DNA from: a phage | Assembly: GCA_033580375.1 (NCBI GenBank) | Contig: GCA_033580375.1_4527.1 | Length of the DNA stretch: 64,000 nt | Strand: one strand, 5' to 3' | Shown: positions 33,562 to 44,019 of the stretch, one piece after another | Layout of the letters: every line of letters begins with the position of its first letter | Position numbering within the stretch: the stretch's first letter is position 1 | Made by a program: the position numbers and the translations under genes | The notes under the pieces: model-generated | Database searches by the model: none | What the model was told of the DNA's origin: nothing | The model's input: the letters and a program-made list of their open reading frames with translations, nothing else

Positions 33562-36500
33562 ATGGTTGACATCAAACGTAAGTTCAGGGCCGAAGATGGT
33601 CTTGACGCAGGCGGTGATAAGATAGTTAACGTTGCGCTTGCTGACCGCACAGTTGGCACCGATGGCGTGAACGTTGACTTTTTGGTGCAAGAAAACACCG
33701 TACAGAATTATGACGAGACGCGCGCGTATACAAAAGATTTTATTGTTCTTTATGATAATCGTTTTTATCAAGCTTTAAACGATATTCCAGCTCCGGCAGG
33801 CCCTTTCTCTTTGGCTAAATGGAAGGCAACTCGTACAGATGCAGAATGGATTACAGTTCAAGGCGGAGATTTCCAATTATCAGTAGGTAACTCTATCGCG
33901 GTTGATACTTCAGCTGGCACTGATATTAATTTCACTTTGCCTCAAAATCCTTTAGATGGCGATACAGTTATTTTGTCTGATATTGGTGGTAGAGTAGGCT
34001 ATGTAAAAGTTCAAATTACTGCAGAGGCTCAAAGTATTGTAAACTTTAGAGGACAACAGGTTCGTTCAGTTTTAATGACGCACCCAAAATCTAAAATGGT
34101 CTTCATTTTTAGCAACCGCCTATGGCAAATGTATGTTTCTGATTACGAACGTAATGCAGTCACAGTAACTCCTGCTAAGCCATATCAGGCGCAACCTAAT
34201 GATTTTATCATTCGACGTTTTACATCAGCCGCTCCTATTAATATTACATTGCCTCGTAATGCTAATAATGGCGATATTATTAATTTAGTTGATTTAGACA
34301 AATTAAACCCATTATATCACACAATTGTCAAAACTTACGATGATACAACTTCTATACGAGAAGCTGGTGTTCATGTAGCAGAAGGACGTAATACTGCGGA
34401 AGCATTCTTTGTTTATGATTCTGCTAATAGCTTATGGCGTGTTTGGGAAGGTGACCAGAAATCTCGTTTACGTATAGTTCGTAATGATACTGATTTACGC
34501 CCTAATGAAGAAGTTCTTGTTTTTGGAACTAATAATGATACAATCTCAACGGTAAATCTTACTTTGCCTACAGATATTTTGTCTGGTGATACTGTTAAAA
34601 TATCGTTGAATTATATGCGTAAAGGGCAAACTGTAAAAATTAAAGCTGCTGAAGGCGATACAATTGCTAGCAGTATTTCTTTATTACAGTTCCCAAAACG
34701 TTCGGAGTATCCACCTGATGCACAATGGGTTTCTGTTAGTGAGCTGGAATTTAATGGTGATACTTCGTATGTACCTGTACTTGAGTTAGCTTATATAGAA
34801 GATTATTCATCTGAAACAAAATATTGGGTAGTTCAACAAAACACCGTAACCGTCGAACGAGTCGATGCATCGAGCAATACCACTCGAGCTCGTTTAGGTG
34901 TTATTGCTCTTGCTTCTCAAGCGCAAGCAAATGTCGATTTAGAAAATGCTCCTGGTAAAGAACTGGCTATTACTCCGGAAACATTAGCAAATCGTACAGC
35001 AACTGAAACTCGTCGTGGTATTGCTCGTATTGCAACAACTGCACAAGTTAACCAGAATACCGATTTTGCATTCCAAGACGACTTGATTATTTCTCCTAAG
35101 AAATTGAACGAACGTACAGCAACTGAAACCCGTAGAGGTGTTGCTGAAGTTGCAACTCAGGCTGAAACTAATGCTGGCACAGATGATACCACTATTATTA
35201 CTCCTAAGAAATTGGATGCCCGTCAAGGTTCTGAAGTTTTATCTGGTATTGTAAAATACACATCTACGACTGGTACTACAGCTGCTACTATTCGTGGTAA
35301 TGCTGGGACTAACGTTTATAACAAAGCCGTAGATAATTTAACTATTTCTCCAAAGGCTCTTGACCAGTATAAAGCTACCCCTACTCAACAGGGCGCAGTA
35401 ATTCTTGCTATTGAAAGTGAAGTTATCGCTGGCGAATCACAAGCCGGTTGGGCTAATGCTGTAGTGACCCCTGAAACTCTGCATAAGAAAACTTCTACTG
35501 ATGGACGTATTGGTTTAATTGAAATTGCTACGCAAGCAGAAACTAACACTGGAACTGATTATACTAGAGCAGTAACGCCTAAGACGTTAAATGATAGGAA
35601 AGCTACGGAAGGATTATCCGGCATAGCCGAAATTGCTACGCAAGTTGAATTTGATACTGGAACTGACGATACTCGTATCTCGTCTCCACTGAAAATTAAA
35701 ACTCATTTTGATTCTTCTGACCGTACCAGTGTTAATTCTGATTCCGGACTTATTGAAGAAGGAACCTTGTGGAACCATTATACTCTTGATATTTCTAAAG
35801 CAAATGAAACACAACGTGGTACACTTCGTGTAGCGACCCAAGCAGAATCTAATGCAGGAACTTTAGATGATGTTCTTATTACTCCTAAAAAGCTTTTAGG
35901 GACTAAGTCCACTGAAACGTCTGAAGGCGTGATTAAGGTTGCTACTCAGGCTGAAACTGTAACAGGAACTTCTGCTAATACTGCTGTATCTCCTAAGAAT
36001 TTAAAATGGATTGTCCAGAATGAACCAACATGGGCTGCTACTACTGCAATAAGAGGTTTTGTTAAAACTTCATCTGGTTCAATCACATTCGTTGGTAATG
36101 ATACAGTTGGTTCAACACAACCTTTAGAATCATATGAAAAAAATAGCTATGCTATATCTCCATATGAATTAAACCGTGTACTTGCTAACTATTTGCCATT
36201 GAAAGCTAAAGCCGTAGATAGTAATCTGTTAGATGGTCTAGATTCTCTTCAGTTCATCCGTAGAGACATCGACCAGACGGTTAATGGTTCTTTAAGTCTT
36301 ACTAAACAGACCAACCTGAGTGCTCCTTTAGTATCTACAAGCACTGCTTCTTTTGGGTCCGAAGCATCTGTTACTCGTAGATTAACTCTTAATGACTCTA
36401 GCGGTTCTGAAATAGTTTTCACTAAAGGAACCCAATCTCTTAGTAATAAAGAGAATTTCGTTGTTAGAGCATGGGGTAATAGCGCTACAGATGGTGCCCG

Positions 36501-37395
36501 TGATACAATATTTGAAGCTGGTGACGAAACCGGATACCATTTCTATTCTCAGCGCGCTTCTGATAATAAAGTATCATTTAATATTAATGGAACGCTTTAT
36601 TCAACAGGTATTGTTTCTACAAATGGATTAAATGTTACAGGTGTTTCTACCTTTACCGGGCCTATTAGTGCTACAGGTGAAATTGTTTCTAGTTCTCCTA
36701 TTGCATTCAGAGCTATTAACGGTAACTATGGTGTTATGCTTTATAATGCTGGTGACAGTTCTTATATTGCATTAACTAACTCAGGTGACCAGACCGGGAC
36801 GTTTAATAACTTACGCCCGATCACGATTAACAATGCCACAGGCTTAGTTCGTCTTGACAATGGTGTTCAAATCACAAGTGGTGCAACAATAACTACCGGT
36901 GGGTTAACTGTAAATAACAGAATTATTTCTAACGGCGTTAAAACTGCCACTGTTTATACCGATAAACCAACAGCTTCTACTGTAGGTTTTTGGTCTATTG
37001 ACATTAACGATTCTGCTGTATATAGCCAATTCCCTGGTTACTGGACGCGTGATAACAAAGGTAACCGTGACCAAGAAATTAAATATCCTGGTACTTTGAC
37101 TCAATTTGGTAATAGCTTAGATTCGCTTTATCAGGATTGGATTTGTTATCCTACAGGTGCAAATGGTGGTAGTATTCGTTATACTCGTACATGGCAGAAA
37201 AATAAAGATGCTTGGACCTCATTTGCAATGGTATTTGATAGTGGCAACCCACCTTCACCTAGCGATGTCGGTGCTATCCCATCTGATAATGCTGTGATTG
37301 GAAACCTTACTGTTCGAGACTTCTTACAATTAGGAAATGTGAGAATTGTTCCAGACCCGGTTAACAAAACAGTTAAATTTATATGGGTTGAATAA
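33562..37395 (+). CDS. 34: long tail fibre proximal subunit gp34
   Basis: 1277-aa ORF (T4 gp34 is 1289 aa); about 7 internal repeats of T-E-x-R-G-x-a-x-(I/V)-A-T-Q-A-E-x-N-x-G-T-D. Confidence 0.9.
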   Translation: MVDIKRKFRAEDGLDAGGDKIVNVALADRTVGTDGVNVDFLVQENTVQNYDETRAYTKDFIVLYDNRFYQALNDIPAPAGPFSLAKWKATRTDAEWITVQGGDFQLSVGNSIAVDTSAGTDINFTLPQNPLDGDTVILSDIGGRVGYVKVQITAEAQSIVNFRGQQVRSVLMTHPKSKMVFIFSNRLWQMYVSDYERNAVTVTPAKPYQAQPNDFIIRRFTSAAPINITLPRNANNGDIINLVDLDKLNPLYHTIVKTYDDTTSIREAGVHVAEGRNTAEAFFVYDSANSLWRVWEGDQKSRLRIVRNDTDLRPNEEVLVFGTNNDTISTVNLTLPTDILSGDTVKISLNYMRKGQTVKIKAAEGDTIASSISLLQFPKRSEYPPDAQWVSVSELEFNGDTSYVPVLELAYIEDYSSETKYWVVQQNTVTVERVDASSNTTRARLGVIALASQAQANVDLENAPGKELAITPETLANRTATETRRGIARIATTAQVNQNTDFAFQDDLIISPKKLNERTATETRRGVAEVATQAETNAGTDDTTIITPKKLDARQGSEVLSGIVKYTSTTGTTAATIRGNAGTNVYNKAVDNLTISPKALDQYKATPTQQGAVILAIESEVIAGESQAGWANAVVTPETLHKKTSTDGRIGLIEIATQAETNTGTDYTRAVTPKTLNDRKATEGLSGIAEIATQVEFDTGTDDTRISSPLKIKTHFDSSDRTSVNSDSGLIEEGTLWNHYTLDISKANETQRGTLRVATQAESNAGTLDDVLITPKKLLGTKSTETSEGVIKVATQAETVTGTSANTAVSPKNLKWIVQNEPTWAATTAIRGFVKTSSGSITFVGNDTVGSTQPLESYEKNSYAISPYELNRVLANYLPLKAKAVDSNLLDGLDSLQFIRRDIDQTVNGSLSLTKQTNLSAPLVSTSTASFGSEASVTRRLTLNDSSGSEIVFTKGTQSLSNKENFVVRAWGNSATDGARDTIFEAGDETGYHFYSQRASDNKVSFNINGTLYSTGIVSTNGLNVTGVSTFTGPISATGEIVSSSPIAFRAINGNYGVMLYNAGDSSYIALTNSGDQTGTFNNLRPITINNATGLVRLDNGVQITSGATITTGGLTVNNRIISNGVKTATVYTDKPTASTVGFWSIDINDSAVYSQFPGYWTRDNKGNRDQEIKYPGTLTQFGNSLDSLYQDWICYPTGANGGSIRYTRTWQKNKDAWTSFAMVFDSGNPPSPSDVGAIPSDNAVIGNLTVRDFLQLGNVRIVPDPVNKTVKFIWVE

Positions 37396-37403
37396 GAGGT
37401 TAT

Positions 37404-38528
37404 ATGGAAAAATTTATGGCAAGGTTTGGACAGGGATACGTCCAAACGCCGTTTTTATCGGAAAGCAATTCAGTTAGATTTAAGCTAAGTATAGCGGGTT
37501 CATGCCCGCTTTCAACAACTAATCCGTATATTTTGTTCCAAAATGAGCCTTTAGGGTTGCAGTCTTTTGGTATTGGACTAAATGTTAGGGTAATAAATCC
37601 GGAAAATGGAACTATAGTTGATAGTAAATTATACAATTTTGCGCCTACAAATAATGCAACTTCAGCTGCATTTATTTCGTTTGTTAATACATACGCAGAT
37701 AATTTCATTTTCGCATTTATTTCTAATAACAAATTTAATTTGCCACCAGAAATAATTGAATGGTTTAAAGCTGCTGGGAGTTCAGTTATACCGTCAATTG
37801 AAGTTGCTAGTCTTGTTGATATTTCATATTCAGCGTTTTATGTTTCAGGTAAAAATACTATTGCATTGGAACACATAAAATACAGTAATAAGAAAACAAT
37901 TTCTGATTACTCAACTCCATTAGATATTGTATATGACTCTATTGCTGATATAGGTGCTACCGGCTATCCTAGACGTACATACGAAGCTCTAGAAACGTTT
38001 TTATCTCCTGTTGGAGGAACTAACAATGAAATAAAAAGGGTGCCTACATCATCCCTTGTTACTCCTATCGCAAACTATGGATTAAAGCCTACAGATTTTC
38101 TTTATTTGAAATTTCAATTAATGGCTGATGAAGCATTACTAGAGGAAGGAACCACAAGACTTTCAATTCGTTTCTTTAAGTCTCCATCTAGCTCTCCTAT
38201 ATCGTCTAAAGATATAAACTTTGACGGAACTGCTGGGGTGTGGAAGCTGTATGAAGAATACGTTGAAATACCAGCTGAAGCCGATGGTTTTACAGTATAT
38301 TGTTACCGTACGGCCCCAGTCGGTCAAGGTGGACTAAGAAATGTTATTTTCACTGAAGTATCATGTAACGGAAGTATAGCAAAACCTGCCGAGTTTGGCC
38401 TAAATGGTATTCGTGCTAATTACATCGATGAATCATTAACCGGTAATGATATAATGGACTTGCCTACTCAGTTATCTAACGACACGGGTAAGGTATTTGG
38501 GCAGGAATTTAAAGAGTACACAGAATAA
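37404..38528 (+). CDS. 35: long tail fibre hinge connector gp35
   Basis: 374-aa ORF, synteny. Confidence 0.8.
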   Translation: MEKFMARFGQGYVQTPFLSESNSVRFKLSIAGSCPLSTTNPYILFQNEPLGLQSFGIGLNVRVINPENGTIVDSKLYNFAPTNNATSAAFISFVNTYADNFIFAFISNNKFNLPPEIIEWFKAAGSSVIPSIEVASLVDISYSAFYVSGKNTIALEHIKYSNKKTISDYSTPLDIVYDSIADIGATGYPRRTYEALETFLSPVGGTNNEIKRVPTSSLVTPIANYGLKPTDFLYLKFQLMADEALLEEGTTRLSIRFFKSPSSSPISSKDINFDGTAGVWKLYEEYVEIPAEADGFTVYCYRTAPVGQGGLRNVIFTEVSCNGSIAKPAEFGLNGIRANYIDESLTGNDIMDLPTQLSNDTGKVFGQEFKEYTE

Positions 38529-38587: not shown

Positions 38588-39244
38588 ATGGCCGATTTAA
38601 AAGCCGGAAGTACAGTTGGTGGTTCCGTCATATGGCATCAAGGCAATTTTCCTTTAATGCCAGCTGGCGATGACATCCTATATAAAACATTTAAATTATA
38701 CACTGAATATAACAAGCCAAAAGCGGCTGATAACGATTTCGTATCTAAAGCAAACGGCGGGACATATCTCAAAAAGGTAATCTTTAACGAAGGTGTTGCA
38801 GTCAAAACAGCAGATGACCAAACGAATGGTATTTTTTCTGGTGGTGGTGACGCCGCGACATTCGACCAAACAAACATGGATATTGTTTCGTGGTATGGTA
38901 TTGGGTTTAAATCATCTCAAGGTACCGGTGAAAGAACTGTTGTAATTGATACTCGCACCGGTAATATAAGTTCTAAAGGCGTTATTGAAGCATCTCAATT
39001 CAGAGCCACAACGTTAGCACCTTTAAATAATTACGACCTTACTCGCAAAGATTATGTTGATAGTCAAATAAATACAGTTAATGCTAATGCAAACAGTCGT
39101 GTACTCCGTTCAGGAGATACAATGACCGGTGCGCTAACCGCCCCAAACTTTTTCTCACAGAATCCTGCATCTCAACCCTCGCATGTTCCGCGATTTGACC
39201 AAATTGTTATTAAGGATTCTGTTCAAGATTTCGGCTATTATTAA
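38588..39244 (+). CDS. 36: long tail fibre distal connector gp36
   Basis: 218-aa ORF (T4 gp36 is 221 aa), synteny. Confidence 0.8.
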   Translation: MADLKAGSTVGGSVIWHQGNFPLMPAGDDILYKTFKLYTEYNKPKAADNDFVSKANGGTYLKKVIFNEGVAVKTADDQTNGIFSGGGDAATFDQTNMDIVSWYGIGFKSSQGTGERTVVIDTRTGNISSKGVIEASQFRATTLAPLNNYDLTRKDYVDSQINTVNANANSRVLRSGDTMTGALTAPNFFSQNPASQPSHVPRFDQIVIKDSVQDFGYY

Positions 39245-39252
39245 GAGGACTT

Positions 39253-42200
39253 ATGGCTACTTTAAAACAAATACAATTTAAAAGAAGCAAAACCGCAGGC
39301 GCACGTCCTGCCGCTTCAGTATTAGCCGAAGGTGAATTGGCTATAAACTTAAAAGACCGTGTACTTTTTACCAAAGATGACCAAGGAAATATTATTGATC
39401 TTGGTTTTGCTAAAGGCGGTAGTATTGACGGGAATGTTATTCACACAGGTAATTATAACCAAACTGGCGATTATACTTTAAATGGCACCTTCACTCAGAC
39501 AGGTAATTTTAATTTAACTGGTATTGCTCGAGTAACTCGTGATGTTATTGCCGCCGGGCAGATTATGACTGAAGGCGGAGAACTTATTACAAAAAGTTCA
39601 GGTACAGCACATGTTCGTTTTTTCGATAACAATAGTCGCGAACGTGGAATCATTTATGCCCCGGCTAATGATGGTTTAACTACACAAGTACTTAATATCA
39701 GGGTTCAAGACTACGCCGCTGGTGATGAAAGCACCTATGCATTTTCGGGCAGTGGACTATTTACTTCACCTGAAGTATCAGCATGGAAATCTATTTCGTC
39801 TCCACAAATTCTGACCGATAAAGTTATTACAAATGGGAAGAAGACGGGCGATTATGATATCTATTCATTATCAAATAACACTCCATTGGCAGAAAGCGAA
39901 ACGGCTATTAACCACCTCCGTGTTATGCGAAATGCTGTAGGAGCAGGTATTTTCCACGAAGTTAATGTTAATGACGGAATAACCTGGTATTCCGGAGATG
40001 GCTTAGACACTTATCTTTGGTCGTTTACCTGGTCCGGTGGATTGAAAGCCGGTCATTCTATCGCTGTAGGTCTTCCAGGCGGTCCAAAAGGATATTCTGA
40101 ATTAGGAACGGCCTCAATTGTTCTTGGTGATAATGATACCGGATTTAAGTGGCATCAGGATGGATATTTCCATACAGTAAACAACGGAACAAAAACTTTC
40201 ATTTACGGTCCTGCGGAAACACAAAGCCTTAGAAAAATGGTTATGGGTTATTCTCCAGATGGGCTTCTTATGACAACGCCACCGACAGAAAACTATGCTT
40301 TGGCCACTGTTGTTACTTACCATGATAATAACGCATACGGCGACGGTCAGACTCTTTTAGGATATTATCAAGGCGGTAATTATCATCACTATTTCCGCGG
40401 TAAAGGTACTACAAACATTAATACTCACGGCGGTTTGTTAGTTACTCCAGGTAATATTGATGTTATTGGCGGTTCTGTTAATATAGATGGTAGAAATAAT
40501 TCTTCTACACTAATGTTTAGAGGCAACACAACAGGATACAGCTCGGTTGATAATATGGATATTAAAGTTTGGGGTAATACGTTTGTTGATCCAAGCGGAG
40601 GTATCCGTAAAAACATTATGGAAATTTCTGATGCAACTAGCTGGATGAGCTATATTCAAAGACTTACTACTGGCGAAGTAGAAATGAACGTTAATGGTTC
40701 ATTTGAATCATCTGGTGTTACTGCTGGAGATAGAGGAGTTCACACAACAGGTGAAATTTCATCTGGAGCAGTGAATGCTCTTCGCATTTGGAATGCAGAT
40801 TATGGAGCCATTTTTAGACGTTCAGAAGGAAGTCTTCATATTATTCCAACTGCTTACGGTGAAGGTAAACACGGTGATATCGGTCCACTTCGCCCGTTTA
40901 GTATGGCTTTAGATACCGGTAAAGTTACTATTCCGGATTTACAATCAAGTTACAATACGTTCGCTGCTAACGGTTATATTAAATTTGTTGGTCATGGAGC
41001 GGGTGCCGGTGGTTATGACATTCAATATTCTCAAGCGGCTCCTATTTTCCAGGAAATCGATGATGATGCTGTAAGCAAATATTATCCTATTGTTAAACAG
41101 AAGTTTTTAAACGGTAAATGCGTTTGGTCTTTAGGTACTGAAATTAATTCGGGTACATTCGTTATTCATCATCTGAAAGAAGATGGTTCACAAGGCCATA
41201 CGTCTCGTTTTAATCAAGACGGTACTGTTAACTTCCCAGATAACGTTTCTGTCGGCGGCGGTGAAGCTACTATTGCTCGTAATGGTAACATCTGGTCTGA
41301 TATCTGGAAAACGTTTACTTCAGCAGGCGACGTAACTAATATTCGCGATGCTATTGCTACTCGCGTTGCCAAAGAAGGCGACACGATGACCGGCACTCTT
41401 TGGATTAATAAAGATGCCGCTGGAATAGTTCTTAATCCTCCTTTGACCAGTGATTCATCATTTATTCGTTCTGATACGGCCGGGGCCAATAATTGGTATA
41501 TTGGTAAAGGCGGTGCCGACAATGGTCTAGGTTTTTACAGTTACATTACACAAGGCGGTGTATACATAACAAATACCGGTGAAATATCGCTTTCTCCTCA
41601 AGGACAAGGAACATTTAATTTTAATAGAGACCGCCTTTATATAAATGCTAGTCAATGGGTTGCACATAAATCTGGCGCTTGGGGCGACCAATGGGGCTTA
41701 GAAGCTCCTGTATTTGTGGATTTTGGCTACGTCGGTAATGATAGTTATTATCCTATTATTAAAGGAAAATCTGTTATTACGAATGAAGGATACGTGTCAG
41801 GCGTTGATTTTGGTATGCGCCGTACCCCTAATATGTGGGCACAAGGTATTATCCGTGTAGGCAACCAGGAAAACGGTTCAGACCCACAAGCCATCTATGA
41901 ATTCCACAGTAACGGTACTTTTTATGCCCCTAGCCTACTTAAGAGCAACAGAGTATCAGCAGGTGGCGGTGACCCCGTATGGGCCGGGCCATGTATTGTT
42001 CTTGGCGATAATGACACAGGTCTAGTTTGGGAAGCAGATGGTATTTTCAACGCATATGCAAACGGACAAGGTGTATTCAGTTTTAGAGCCGGTCTCGCAC
42101 AAACATTTGGTAACGTAGCGTTAAACGTTAACGCAGGTATGTATGTTCGTGATAACATTGATGTTAACGACGTTTATATCCGTTCTGATATTCGCTGTAA

Positions 42201-42504
42201 GTCAGAAATTAAGCTTATTAAGAACGCTCAAGAGAAATCTAAACTCTTAGGCGGCTATACTTATCTGCTTAAAAACTCTGTTACAGACGAAGTTAAACCA
42301 TCTGCAGGTTTAATTGCTCAGGAAGTTCAAGAAGTATTGCCTGAACTTGTTTCTGAAGATAAAGAGACCGGACTGCTTCGTTTGAACTATAACGGTATTA
42401 TTGGTTTAAATACTGCCACTATCAACGAGCATACTGACGAAATCAAGGAATTGAAATCTGAAATTGCTGAGTTGAAAGCATTAATTAAATCATTGATAAA
42501 ATAA
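39253..42504 (+). CDS. 37: long tail fibre distal subunit gp37 with C-terminal intramolecular chaperone (S74-like) domain
   Basis: 1083-aa ORF; C-terminal ~106 aa (from RSDIRCKSEI, containing GLIAQEVQEVLPELV) matches the endosialidase-type auto-cleaving chaperone domain. Confidence 0.85.
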   Translation: MATLKQIQFKRSKTAGARPAASVLAEGELAINLKDRVLFTKDDQGNIIDLGFAKGGSIDGNVIHTGNYNQTGDYTLNGTFTQTGNFNLTGIARVTRDVIAAGQIMTEGGELITKSSGTAHVRFFDNNSRERGIIYAPANDGLTTQVLNIRVQDYAAGDESTYAFSGSGLFTSPEVSAWKSISSPQILTDKVITNGKKTGDYDIYSLSNNTPLAESETAINHLRVMRNAVGAGIFHEVNVNDGITWYSGDGLDTYLWSFTWSGGLKAGHSIAVGLPGGPKGYSELGTASIVLGDNDTGFKWHQDGYFHTVNNGTKTFIYGPAETQSLRKMVMGYSPDGLLMTTPPTENYALATVVTYHDNNAYGDGQTLLGYYQGGNYHHYFRGKGTTNINTHGGLLVTPGNIDVIGGSVNIDGRNNSSTLMFRGNTTGYSSVDNMDIKVWGNTFVDPSGGIRKNIMEISDATSWMSYIQRLTTGEVEMNVNGSFESSGVTAGDRGVHTTGEISSGAVNALRIWNADYGAIFRRSEGSLHIIPTAYGEGKHGDIGPLRPFSMALDTGKVTIPDLQSSYNTFAANGYIKFVGHGAGAGGYDIQYSQAAPIFQEIDDDAVSKYYPIVKQKFLNGKCVWSLGTEINSGTFVIHHLKEDGSQGHTSRFNQDGTVNFPDNVSVGGGEATIARNGNIWSDIWKTFTSAGDVTNIRDAIATRVAKEGDTMTGTLWINKDAAGIVLNPPLTSDSSFIRSDTAGANNWYIGKGGADNGLGFYSYITQGGVYITNTGEISLSPQGQGTFNFNRDRLYINASQWVAHKSGAWGDQWGLEAPVFVDFGYVGNDSYYPIIKGKSVITNEGYVSGVDFGMRRTPNMWAQGIIRVGNQENGSDPQAIYEFHSNGTFYAPSLLKSNRVSAGGGDPVWAGPCIVLGDNDTGLVWEADGIFNAYANGQGVFSFRAGLAQTFGNVALNVNAGMYVRDNIDVNDVYIRSDIRCKSEIKLIKNAQEKSKLLGGYTYLLKNSVTDEVKPSAGLIAQEVQEVLPELVSEDKETGLLRLNYNGIIGLNTATINEHTDEIKELKSEIAELKALIKSLIK

Positions 42505-42509
42505 TAAAA

Positions 42510-42523
42510 GGGCCTTCGGGCCC
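42510..42523 (+). promoter_or_regulatory. hairpin between genes 37 and 38
   Basis: GGGCC-UUCG-GGCCC immediately followed by SD GGAGG and the gene 38 ATG. Confidence 0.45.
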
Positions 42524-42534
42524 TGGAGGTTTTT

Positions 42535-43314
42535 ATGGCAGTAGTAGGAATACCTGGTTGGATTGGAACATCAGCAGTGGCTGAAACAGGTCAACGTTGG
42601 ATGTCAGCAGCTTCTAGAGAATTACGTCTAGGGAACCCATCTTGGATGTCACAATTCGCTGGACGTTCAAGAGAAATTATTCACACTCTTGGAGCAGACC
42701 ATAATTTTAATGGTCAATGGTTCCGTGACCGTTGTTTTGAAGCCGGTGGCGCTCCTATAGTGTTTAATATCACAGGCAACTTAGTATCATATTCTAAAGA
42801 CGTTCCTTTATTCTTCATGTATGGTGATACTCCTAACGAATATGTTACTTTGAATATTCATGGTGGTGTTCATATGTGGGGCCGAGGTGGTAATGGTAGC
42901 GTAAATGGAAGCCCAGGCACTAATGGTGGCGACGTAATCCAAAATGATATTGGTGGACGACTTCGCATTTGGAACTATGGCGTTATTGCATCAGGTGGCG
43001 GTGGCGGCGGTGCAGTGTCGTTAAAGAATAGCTGGGATGCGTATGCTACGGCTGGTGGCGGTGGTGGTAGACCATTTGGTCTCGGCGGTGCTGGCGTTAA
43101 TTGGCCTGGCGGCAATGCTAGTTATGACGCCCCGGGCGGCGCCGGTTACACTTCCCAATTCGGCGGAGGCAATGGCGGTGATGCTGGGGGCGCTGGTGGT
43201 GACGGATGGGGCAGTCACTTATCTAGATCTGGTGGTGGTGCTCCTGGTAGAGCAGTATTCGGAAGTTCACCTTCATGGGGTGCTACAGGCACAATCTATG
43301 GCTCCTGGATTTAA
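42535..43314 (+). CDS. 38: T2-type receptor-recognising adhesin gp38
   Basis: 259-aa ORF with conserved N-terminus ([11 protein letters not shown]...[35 protein letters not shown]) and glycine-rich blocks GGGGGG / [14 protein letters not shown] / [15 protein letters not shown]. Confidence 0.85.
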
Positions 43315-43332
43315 ACGATAATACCTCTCAAT

Positions 43333-43340
43333 TATAAATA
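43333..43340 (+). promoter_or_regulatory. T4-type late promoter for holin t
   Basis: TATAAATA about 20 nt upstream of the t ATG, SD GGAGG. Confidence 0.6.
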
Positions 43341-43359
43341 TTGATAAATGGGAGGTAAT

Positions 43360-44019
43360 ATGGCAGCACCAAAAGTATCATTTTCGCCTAGTGATATTTT
43401 ATTTGGGTTGCTAGACCGCATTTTCAAAGATAACGCCTCTGGAAATATTCTTATTTCCAGAGTTGCTGTTGTAGTTCTTTTGTTCCTAATGGCACTAATA
43501 TGGTACAAAGGGAGTATTTTTATGGATTATTACGTGAGGTCGAAATATGATACTTACACAGAAGTAATTCAAAAAGAAAGAAATACACGATTTGAATCTG
43601 CGGCTTTAGAACAACTACAAATAGTCCACGTCACATCAAGGGCGGATTTTAGTTCGGTGTATTCTTTCAGACCTAAAAATCTAAATTATTTCGTCGACCT
43701 TATTGCGTATGAAGGTAAGTTACCTAGCACAGTAACTGAAAAATCTATGGGAGGATTTCCTGTCGATAAAACGACAGCAGAATATTCGGTCCATTTAAGT
43801 GGACTTCACTTTACTTCTAAAACAGATTTTGCTTTCTTACCTACCAAATCAAAAACTCCGGAACTGGCATATATGTATAGTTGTCCTTACTTCAATTTGG
43901 ATAACATATATGCTGGAACTGTTTCTATGTATTGGTACAAGGGGTCGGATGTGTTAAATGAAGAACGCTTGGCAGCAATATGCAACCAAGCAGCAAGGAT
44001 ATTAGGGCGGGCTAAATAA
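43360..44019 (+). CDS. t: holin T
   Basis: MAAPKVSFSPSDILFGLLDRIFKDNA... matches T4 holin as recalled; start moved from track ATG (43348) to ATG after SD GGAGG; single N-terminal TMD. Confidence 0.9.
   Translation: MAAPKVSFSPSDILFGLLDRIFKDNASGNILISRVAVVVLLFLMALIWYKGSIFMDYYVRSKYDTYTEVIQKERNTRFESAALEQLQIVHVTSRADFSSVYSFRPKNLNYFVDLIAYEGKLPSTVTEKSMGGFPVDKTTAEYSVHLSGLHFTSKTDFAFLPTKSKTPELAYMYSCPYFNLDNIYAGTVSMYWYKGSDVLNEERLAAICNQAARILGRAK

Follow-up and report, generated by a model that had tools for sequence, protein, structure and literature searches.

Several described tail-fibre tips resemble the one examined here. In phages T2 and T6, a proteolytically processed gp37 is capped by gp38, a protein of ~260 aa in which five glycine-rich motifs (GRMs) are combined with four hypervariable segments (HVSs), according to the published accounts (Drexler et al., 1986; Trojet et al., 2011, PMC3157838), the second of which cites the processing for T2. 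By Pfam, an S74 domain is found in the gp37 of T2, T6, S16, and Bas47, and is absent from T4 gp37; T2 uses FadL as receptor, unlike the OmpF predicted for the phage under study. The receptor of T6 is Tsx. Phage S16 has the same two-gene design, an S74-bearing gp37 followed by gp38 (PDB 6F45; Dunne et al., 2018, via PMC7917993 and PMC12892980); its receptor is Salmonella OmpC. In the S16 structure, the N-terminal tryptophans of gp38 are prongs that dock into the gp37 tip (PMC7917993). The receptor-binding domain of PP01 gp38 (PDB 9V85) binds O157 OmpC through loop E, which enters the OmpC cleft (PMC12892980). A further group of gp38 adhesins (Bas47, RB51, fPS-2/fPS-90, and FL33/FL34) binds OmpF. 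In phage T4, gp38 is likewise encoded between g37 and t but is an assembly chaperone, and T4 gp37 is the adhesin at its own tip and ends in Collar and fibre repeats.

On the + strand of the window (the whole stretch of 64,000 nucleotides analysed), the open reading frames and Pfam matches give the gene order g34-g35-g36-g37-g38-t: gp34 (33562-37395), gp35 (37404-38528), gp36 (38588-39244), g37 for the distal subunit of the long tail fibre (39253..42504; 1083 aa), g38 for the tail-fibre tip adhesin (42535..43314; 259 aa, 26.2 kDa), and, after gp38, holin t. The genome is ~95% identical to Escherichia phages OLB35 and AlbertHofmann (Bas47), and NCBI already holds the exact gp37 (ELV3995608.1, named only generically as “tail fiber domain-containing protein”) and the exact gp38 (ELV3995609.1, “receptor-recognizing protein”). 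The g38 start lies immediately downstream of the S74-bearing g37, 30 bases after its stop; T2, T6, S16, Bas47, and RB51 likewise have g38 directly behind such a g37. The gap contains a hairpin (A-GGGCC-UUCG-GGCCC-U; 42509..42524) and, 3' of it, a GGAGG ribosome-binding site (42525-42529); T2, T6, S16, T4, fPS-2, and FL33 also have a hairpin at this position, with stems that differ in sequence and pairing that is kept. The region is very probably the distal tip module of a T-even long tail fibre of the T2/T6/S16 kind, and nothing was found that contradicts a design consisting of an S74-bearing gp37 and a gp38 adhesin. The initial annotation had delimited this segment as 42184-43314, which is exact to the base: the gp37 codon for Ser978 starts at 42184, and the gp38 stop codon (TAA) ends at 43314.

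The assignment of gp38 to the T2/T6/S16 adhesin type is supported by both family membership and fold. Pfam GP38 (PF05268) matches residues 47-259 (277.6 bits, E 1.1e-82) and Gp38_N (PF21721) matches residues 1-42 (74.3 bits, E 7.7e-21), each against a cut-off of 25 bits. The alignment with the adhesins of T2, T6, and S16 that the initial annotation had proposed gave 52%, 65%, and 50% identity, respectively, and confirmed the adhesin type. Sequence searches of the PDB retrieved PP01 9V85 (E 2e-72; 63% identity) and S16 6F45_D (E 6e-51), and an AF2 model of gp38 (pLDDT 90, pTM 0.83) was superposed by Foldseek on 9V85, the best structural match (E 5e-25, TM 0.91 by target, rmsd 1.5 Å), and on 6F45_D (E 2e-22, TM 0.83/0.87), with no other PDB entry below E 1. 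The model thus predicts a polyglycine-II sandwich fold for the C-terminal half. The Gp38_N domain (42535..42660) includes W9, W22, and W37, which are invariant in an eight-sequence alignment, and through it a single copy of gp38 would cap the gp37 tip. Kinship with the T4 assembly chaperone was rejected: the best BLASTP match of gp38 to T4 gp38 has an E of 0.13 (60 residues, 18% identity), T4 gp38 has no Pfam match, and S74 is absent from T4 gp37.

Glycine makes up 36.5% of residues 116-241 of gp38 vs 12% of residues 1-115. Column entropy over 118 gp38 sequences delimits five GRMs and four HVSs, the latter forming five loops (A-E), with ~0 bits in the GRMs (in GRM4, at the Gly positions) vs about 2-3 bits in the HVSs; the Gly positions are invariant across all 118 homologues. 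GRM1 (aa 116-121, GRGGNG; 42880-42897) is followed by HVS1 or loop A (aa 122-130, SVNGSPGTN; 42898..42924; 1.2-2.8 bits), which maps to W119-I124 of PP01 loop A. GRM2 (aa 154-159; 42994-43011) precedes HVS2 or loop B (aa 160-173; 43012..43053), where entropy peaks for the whole protein (2.2-3.1 bits) and which contains the stretch of lowest confidence in the model (pLDDT 64 at residues 161-170). Between GRM3 (aa 174-185; 43054-43089) and GRM4 (aa 212-222; 43168-43200) lies HVS3 (aa 186-211; 43090..43167), which corresponds to PP01 loops C and D; loop C (186-191, AGVNWP) and loop D (202-211, including Q208) are separated in it by conserved residues 192-201. HVS4 or loop E (aa 223-233; 43201..43233; 1.7-2.6 bits) maps to PP01 loop E and is followed by GRM5 (aa 234-241; 43234-43257). 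The PP01 loop definitions transfer directly to this gp38, although loops B, D, and E differ from those of PP01 in sequence and length; S16 gp38 has the same fold but differs in all five loops. An N-terminal attachment region followed by glycine blocks and variable segments, as the initial annotation described it, is therefore borne out by the Gp38_N and GP38 matches and by the five GRMs and four HVSs.

In the C-terminal half of gp38, the polyglycine-II sandwich of five GRMs would present the five loops to an outer-membrane porin, and OmpF is the likely receptor because near-identical adhesins (Bas47, RB51, fPS-2, and FL33) use OmpF. The adhesins of the OmpF-binding group are 90-96% identical to this gp38 over all 259 residues. 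Identity is 95.8% with AlbertHofmann/Bas47, in which ompF dependence was complemented (PMC8594841); 92% with fPS-2 and 90% with fPS-90, which use OmpF plus LPS (PMC7917993); and 90.7% with FL33; the RB51 adhesin shares a 90% cluster with this gp38. The phage probably also depends on the LPS core. However, the OmpF assignment stays a prediction, since single loop substitutions switch porins, and it is the weak step of the explanation: from every OmpF-tested relative, gp38 differs by at least 10 residues, nearly all in loops A, B, C, and E. RB51 uses OmpF, and Q206L by itself retargets it to OmpW (bioRxiv 10.64898/2026.04.02.716166).

It is possible, if on balance unlikely, that the architecture is as described and the receptor is not OmpF but OmpW, OmpC, LamB, or a particular OmpF variant. 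In addition to the effect of Q206L in RB51, such a shift would be consistent with nine residues at which gp38 differs from Bas47, RB51, fPS-2, and FL33 (S122, S126, K164, D168, A169, Y170, A186, A220, and S227), including four in HVS2 (K164, D168, A169, and Y170); A186, A220, and S227 are absent from all five close relatives examined (ESh24, Bas47, fPS-2, FL33, and RB51), and S227, in loop E, is replaced by Asn in four of four close relatives compared. Furthermore, phage Bp7, with a related adhesin (identical in type through residue 222), is reported to use LamB/OmpC; however, Bp7 is a poor guide because the C-terminus of its deposited gp38 is frameshifted. Against a receptor other than OmpF, the four relatives at 90-96% identity were tested independently and are all OmpF users, Q208 (the counterpart of RB51 Q206) is retained, and loop D is the same as in Bas47 and RB51. 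The allele combines the loop-A/B sequence of Shigella phage ESh24 with the loop D of OmpF binders, and because single loop changes retarget adhesins of this cluster, it might recognise a porin, or an OmpF variant, other than the one used by Bas47 and RB51, which we consider rather doubtful. Binding to OmpF remains the preferred prediction. The reading of host range from the gp38 loops, put forward in the initial annotation, holds in that the loops would determine the porin; secondary LPS receptors and the defences of the host contribute to host range as well, which the gp38 loops do not govern alone.

The gp37 tail is assigned, with support from its sequence, to the S74-type intramolecular chaperones. 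Codon 978 (tct, Ser978) begins at base 42184, directly after cgt (Arg977), and from there to the g37 stop exactly 106 residues are encoded (SDIRCKSEI...KSLIK). This segment (S978-K1083; 42184..42501; 11.75 kDa), the last 106 of 1083 residues, forms the extreme C-terminus of the fibre protein. Pfam Peptidase_S74 (PF13884) matches residues 978-1033 (45.4 bits, E 9.8e-12; curated cut-off 22 bits) over model positions 1-57 of 58, and Gp34_trimer matches residues 453-550. The tail aligns with S16 gp37 (6F45_A, E 5e-31), which has the same chaperone subtype (…GLIAQEV…LRLNYNGI…LNTAAIN.HT.EI.ELK…) in a protein of 749 aa vs 1083 aa here, and its profile also reaches MYRF 7DC3 (7e-10), tail fibre 8JOV (4e-7), and the GA-1 chaperone 3GUD (2.5e-3). 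The gp37 of AlbertHofmann, 91.5% identical overall, has the same chaperone domain and length, whereas fPS-2 and FL33 have another chaperone subtype, together with another gp38 N-terminal variant. The string GLIAQEVQEVLPELV quoted in the initial annotation is present in the tail, as is the predicted coiled coil: a clean heptad repeat spans residues 1057-1083 (42421..42501), a sequence pattern with I1057/I1064/I1071/I1078 at a positions and H1060/L1067/L1074/L1081 at d positions, and the T2 chaperone lacks such a long heptad tail. The proposed likeness to endosialidases would hold at the level of the S74 family; directly, no endosialidase chain was retrieved in PDB sequence searches of the tail up to E 10, and the link to the chaperone of K1F endosialidase, with which the family was founded, is transitive, via the Pfam family and 3GUD (E 0.0025).

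The precursor of 116.8 kDa would be matured by self-cleavage, with the S74 chaperone assisting trimerisation and folding at the C-terminal fibre end. The residues S978, D979, R981, and K983 (S-D-x-R-x-K) are invariant in an alignment of eight T-even gp37 proteins, and the GA-1 chaperone, which starts SDERHK, has them too. In MEROPS family S74, the conserved Ser and the Lys five residues downstream have catalytic roles. After folding, Ser978, with Lys983 as catalytic partner, would cut the Arg977-Ser978 bond between bases 42183 and 42184, releasing the 11.75-kDa fragment and leaving a mature gp37 of 105 kDa that ends in DVYIR (D973-R977; 42169..42183). The fPS phages, T6, and FL33 have this sequence too; it aligns with the DLNVS immediately N-terminal to the cut in S16, where autocleavage occurs at DLNVS^SDRRIKK (PMC7917993). 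The equivalent site is DVYIR^SDIRCK, with Ser978 aligned with the Ser at the S16 cut, in agreement with the conserved Ser noted in the initial annotation; S16 has Ser ahead of the cut, in place of the Arg in this gp37.

Since the motif contains a Cys (SDIRCK) that few of the aligned sequences would lead one to expect, the S74 domain of the predicted self-cleaving gp37 could be imagined as a non-cleaving relic, with gp37 staying full length and gp38 serving in assembly only, as in T4. We consider this highly improbable, given that Ser978 and Lys983 are intact and invariant, that AlbertHofmann, a viable OmpF-dependent phage, has the same SDIRCK, and that gp38 is without similarity to the T4 chaperone and has a full receptor-binding fold in its model. 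As for the notion that the glycine-rich half of gp38 is no folded domain but low-complexity sequence or the product of a wrongly called frame, the local GC of up to 0.57 (a rise due to the glycine-rich half), a 94-aa open reading frame in another frame (43037-43321), and a 65-aa one on the opposite strand lend it next to no credence, as it is refuted by the Pfam match in the called frame, the entropy profile with its invariant Gly positions, and the superposition on crystal structures, and the alternative frame is the one that appears in the Bp7 entry, which is evidently frameshifted.

Published work already covers the two-component design of the tip, its self-cleaving chaperone, the fold rich in glycine, and the cluster of OmpF binders, and the locus adds no new biology. 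The region sets the primary receptor and with it part of the host range of the phage, which is of use in phage typing and in the choice of therapeutic phages, and the loop coordinates indicate where to look for the prediction or engineering of specificity.

A complete T-even long-tail-fibre locus was identified on the plus strand of the window by ORF calls and Pfam: gp34 (33562-37395; 1277 aa), gp35 (37404-38528; 374 aa), gp36 (38588-39244; 218 aa), gp37 (39253-42504; 1083 aa) and gp38 (42535-43314; 259 aa), followed by the holin gene t, listed as a plus-strand ORF at 43348-44019 (223 aa as listed). DNA identity is 94-96% over 24 kb to Escherichia phages OLB35, AlbertHofmann (classified as Mosigvirus) and KMB38, and to Shigella phage Shf125875. 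The ORF-tool start of t (ATG at 43348) is probably wrong; the start is probably ATG 43360 (MAAPKVSF…, with GGGAGG before it), for a product of 219 aa, the length in AlbertHofmann. Between g38 and t, at 43333-43340, is the T4 late-promoter consensus TATAAATA, and a predicted late promoter is annotated at the matching place in the fPS-2 record. The initial annotation had placed a T2-type adhesin system, comprising an auto-cleaving chaperone domain on gp37 and a glycine-rich gp38, at 42184-43314, and both boundaries are exact: the gp37 Ser978 codon, right after Arg977, starts at 42184, and the gp38 stop codon ends at 43314.

Residues 978-1033 of gp37 score 45.4 bits (cut-off 22 bits) against Pfam PF13884 (Peptidase_S74, "chaperone of endosialidase"). 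The domain is also present in gp37 of T2, T6, S16 and AlbertHofmann, whereas T4 gp37 lacks it and ends in Collar and fibre repeats. Across eight aligned T-even gp37 C-termini, an S-D-x-R-x-K motif is invariant (S978-D-I-R-C-K983 in the window), and the nearest solved relative of the gp37 tail is S16 gp37 (PDB 6F45; E 5e-31); together with the Pfam match, these bear out the S74-type chaperone proposed for the C-terminus. A profile built from the eight sequences matches the MYRF auto-processing domain (7DC3; 7e-10), the tail fibre 8JOV (4e-7) and the GA-1 neck-appendage chaperone (3GUD; 2.5e-3), the N-terminus of which is SDERHK. Neither the single sequence nor the eight-sequence profile gave a direct match to the K1F endosialidase in PDB sequence searches up to E 10. 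The final 27 residues form a heptad repeat with Ile in the a positions and Leu in the d positions (except H1060, the first d), consistent with the suggested coiled-coil tail.

S16 gp37 undergoes autocleavage at DLNVS^SDRRIKK, and cleavage at DVYIR^SDGRLKI has been predicted for fPS phages (PMC7917993). The corresponding window sequence, DVYIR^SDIRCK, leads us to predict self-cleavage at Arg977|Ser978, which would leave a mature fibre subunit of 105.0 kDa and release a fragment of 11.75 kDa. That T2 gp37 is proteolytically processed was already known from Drexler et al. (1986), as cited in PMC3157838.

At least three S74 chaperone subtypes occur among T-even gp37 proteins: an S16-like form (window, Bas47 [AlbertHofmann], ESh24 and RB51), a form with the C-terminal end …ARKISNYFKF (T6, fPS-2 and FL33), and a shorter form (T2). 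The chaperone subtype is paired with one gp38 N-terminal variant in the window, Bas47 and ESh24, and with another in T6, fPS-2 and FL33; in RB51, however, the window-type chaperone occurs alongside a gp38 N-terminus that is S16-like, so the coupling is not strict, and co-variation of the two was rejected. The remainder of gp37 (shaft, 39253-42183) is a mosaic: identity to ESh24 is at least 86% per 50-residue block to residue 700, falls to 36-52% over residues 701-900 and rises again towards the C-terminus, whereas identity to AlbertHofmann dips (66-82%) at residues 151-350 instead. A Gp34_trimer domain match at gp37 residues 453-550 is shared with gp37 of T2, T4 and T6.

The gp38 protein matches Pfam Gp38_N (residues 1-42) and GP38 (residues 47-259; E 1e-82), and is 52%, 65% and 50% identical to gp38 of T2, T6 and S16, respectively. 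Sequence comparison of the window gp38 with the chaperone gp38 of T4 detected no similarity (E 0.13), which argues for an adhesin of the T2/S16 type rather than the T4 type, as had been proposed. Both solved adhesins are matched by sequence (PP01, 9V85, E 2e-72; S16, 6F45_D, E 6e-51), and an AlphaFold2 model (59 homologues; mean pLDDT 90, pTM 0.83) superimposes on the PP01 receptor-binding domain (TM 0.91 by target; rmsd 1.5 Å) and on S16 gp38 (TM 0.83/0.87), with no other PDB match below E 1 in the structure search. W9, W22 and W37 are invariant in the alignment and, with the Gp38_N match, support a conserved N-terminal attachment region; in PMC7917993, these tryptophans are described as prongs for docking onto the tip of gp37.

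Column entropy over an alignment of 118 full-length gp38 sequences retrieved by the protein search separates glycine-rich motifs (GRMs; approximately 0 bits) from variable stretches (2-3 bits), as anticipated. The five GRMs are at residues 116-121 (GRGGNG), 154-159 (GGGGGG), 174-185 (12 residues), 212-222 (Gly positions conserved) and 234-241 (GGAPGRAV), and the four hypervariable segments (HVS1-HVS4) are at residues 122-130 (42898-42924), 160-173 (43012-43053), 186-211 (43090-43167) and 223-233 (43201-43233), all on the plus strand. The middle of HVS3 (192-201) is conserved; when HVS3 is split there, the four segments correspond to loops A-E, the five structural loops of PP01 gp38 (PMC12892980). 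Loop B is the sole low-confidence stretch of the model (pLDDT 64). The same architecture was described by Trojet et al. (PMC3157838).

Two further ORFs within g38, one in an alternative frame (43037-43321, +) and one antisense (43021-43218, -), are regarded as by-products of GGN-rich sequence. Within the 30 bases that separate g37 from g38 is a hairpin, GGGCC-UUCG-GGCCC (42509-42524), just 5' of a GGAGG ribosome-binding site. A hairpin lies at the matching spot in T2, T6, S16, T4, fPS-2 and FL33, and the stems differ yet still pair, with UUCG, UUUG, UACG or AAAU loops. A scan flagged the hairpin as a terminator, a role rejected on the basis that the T-run starts six bases past the stem and that the folding energy is ordinary for the composition (z -1.37). 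We leave it as a conserved intercistronic hairpin. Stable hairpins of such kind were reportedly noted in T4 intercistronic regions by Tuerk and colleagues in 1988.

Bp7 gp38 as deposited (protein P0006; 263 aa) matches the window adhesin as far as residue 222 and then reads …ITYLDLAVVLLVERYSEV…, which is the reading of the alternative frame open in the window at 43037-43321 (+); the deposited C-terminus thus appears to be frameshifted within the glycine-rich region. A 303-aa protein from a 25,747-bp E. coli contig in NCBI (P0080) is chimeric, with approximately 157 residues of gp38 up to the GRM2 GGGGGG followed by an FL33-type gp37 tip and S74 chaperone (…CNDVYIRSDRRLKIN…); it may reflect either a genuine rearrangement or an artefact, of assembly or of recombination, across the glycine run. 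Public accessions for gp38 of RB51 and RB68 share one identical sequence (P0122), whereas a Q206L difference between these phages has been reported (bioRxiv 10.64898/2026.04.02.716166); thus, the laboratory stock of RB68 may not match its public record.

The initial interpretation of the gp37/gp38 region is supported, as every tested feature agrees with what has been published on the T2/T6/S16 adhesin system, none of whose defining features failed. Exact copies of gp37 (ELV3995608.1, "tail fiber domain-containing protein") and gp38 (ELV3995609.1, "receptor-recognizing protein") are already in NCBI; the contig that encodes both is 169,481 bp long and labelled Escherichia coli. We regard the tip module as ordinary and already known. 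By homology, we infer the putative gp37 cleavage, the gp38 capping stoichiometry and receptor binding.

The window gp38 sits in a tight group, tested members of which use OmpF: AlbertHofmann/Bas47 (95.8% identity to the window gp38; OmpF, complemented, and LPS core dependent; PMC8594841), fPS-2 and fPS-90 (92% and 90%; OmpF plus LPS; PMC7917993), FL33 and FL34 (90.7% for FL33; OmpF; PMC12032242), and RB51 (same 90% cluster; OmpF; 2026 preprint, bioRxiv 10.64898/2026.04.02.716166). In RB51 gp38, Q206L is necessary and sufficient for a switch from OmpF to OmpW (same preprint); the equivalent Gln208 is kept in the window gp38, and its loop D has the same sequence as in Bas47 and RB51. The window allele is identical to no receptor-tested one. 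It differs from ESh24 at six residues, all within HVS3, GRM4 or HVS4, and from Bas47 at 11, of which eight are in HVS and one is at GRM4 variable position 220. A186, A220 and S227 occur in none of the five close relatives compared (ESh24, Bas47, fPS-2, FL33 and RB51). Up to residue 222, the Bp7 adhesin is identical in type to that of the window, and by the title of PMC7307102 Bp7 is reported to use LamB and OmpC. Because of the unmatched allele, these three peculiar residues and the Bp7 report, we hold with reasonable rather than high confidence that the window phage would use OmpF as its receptor.
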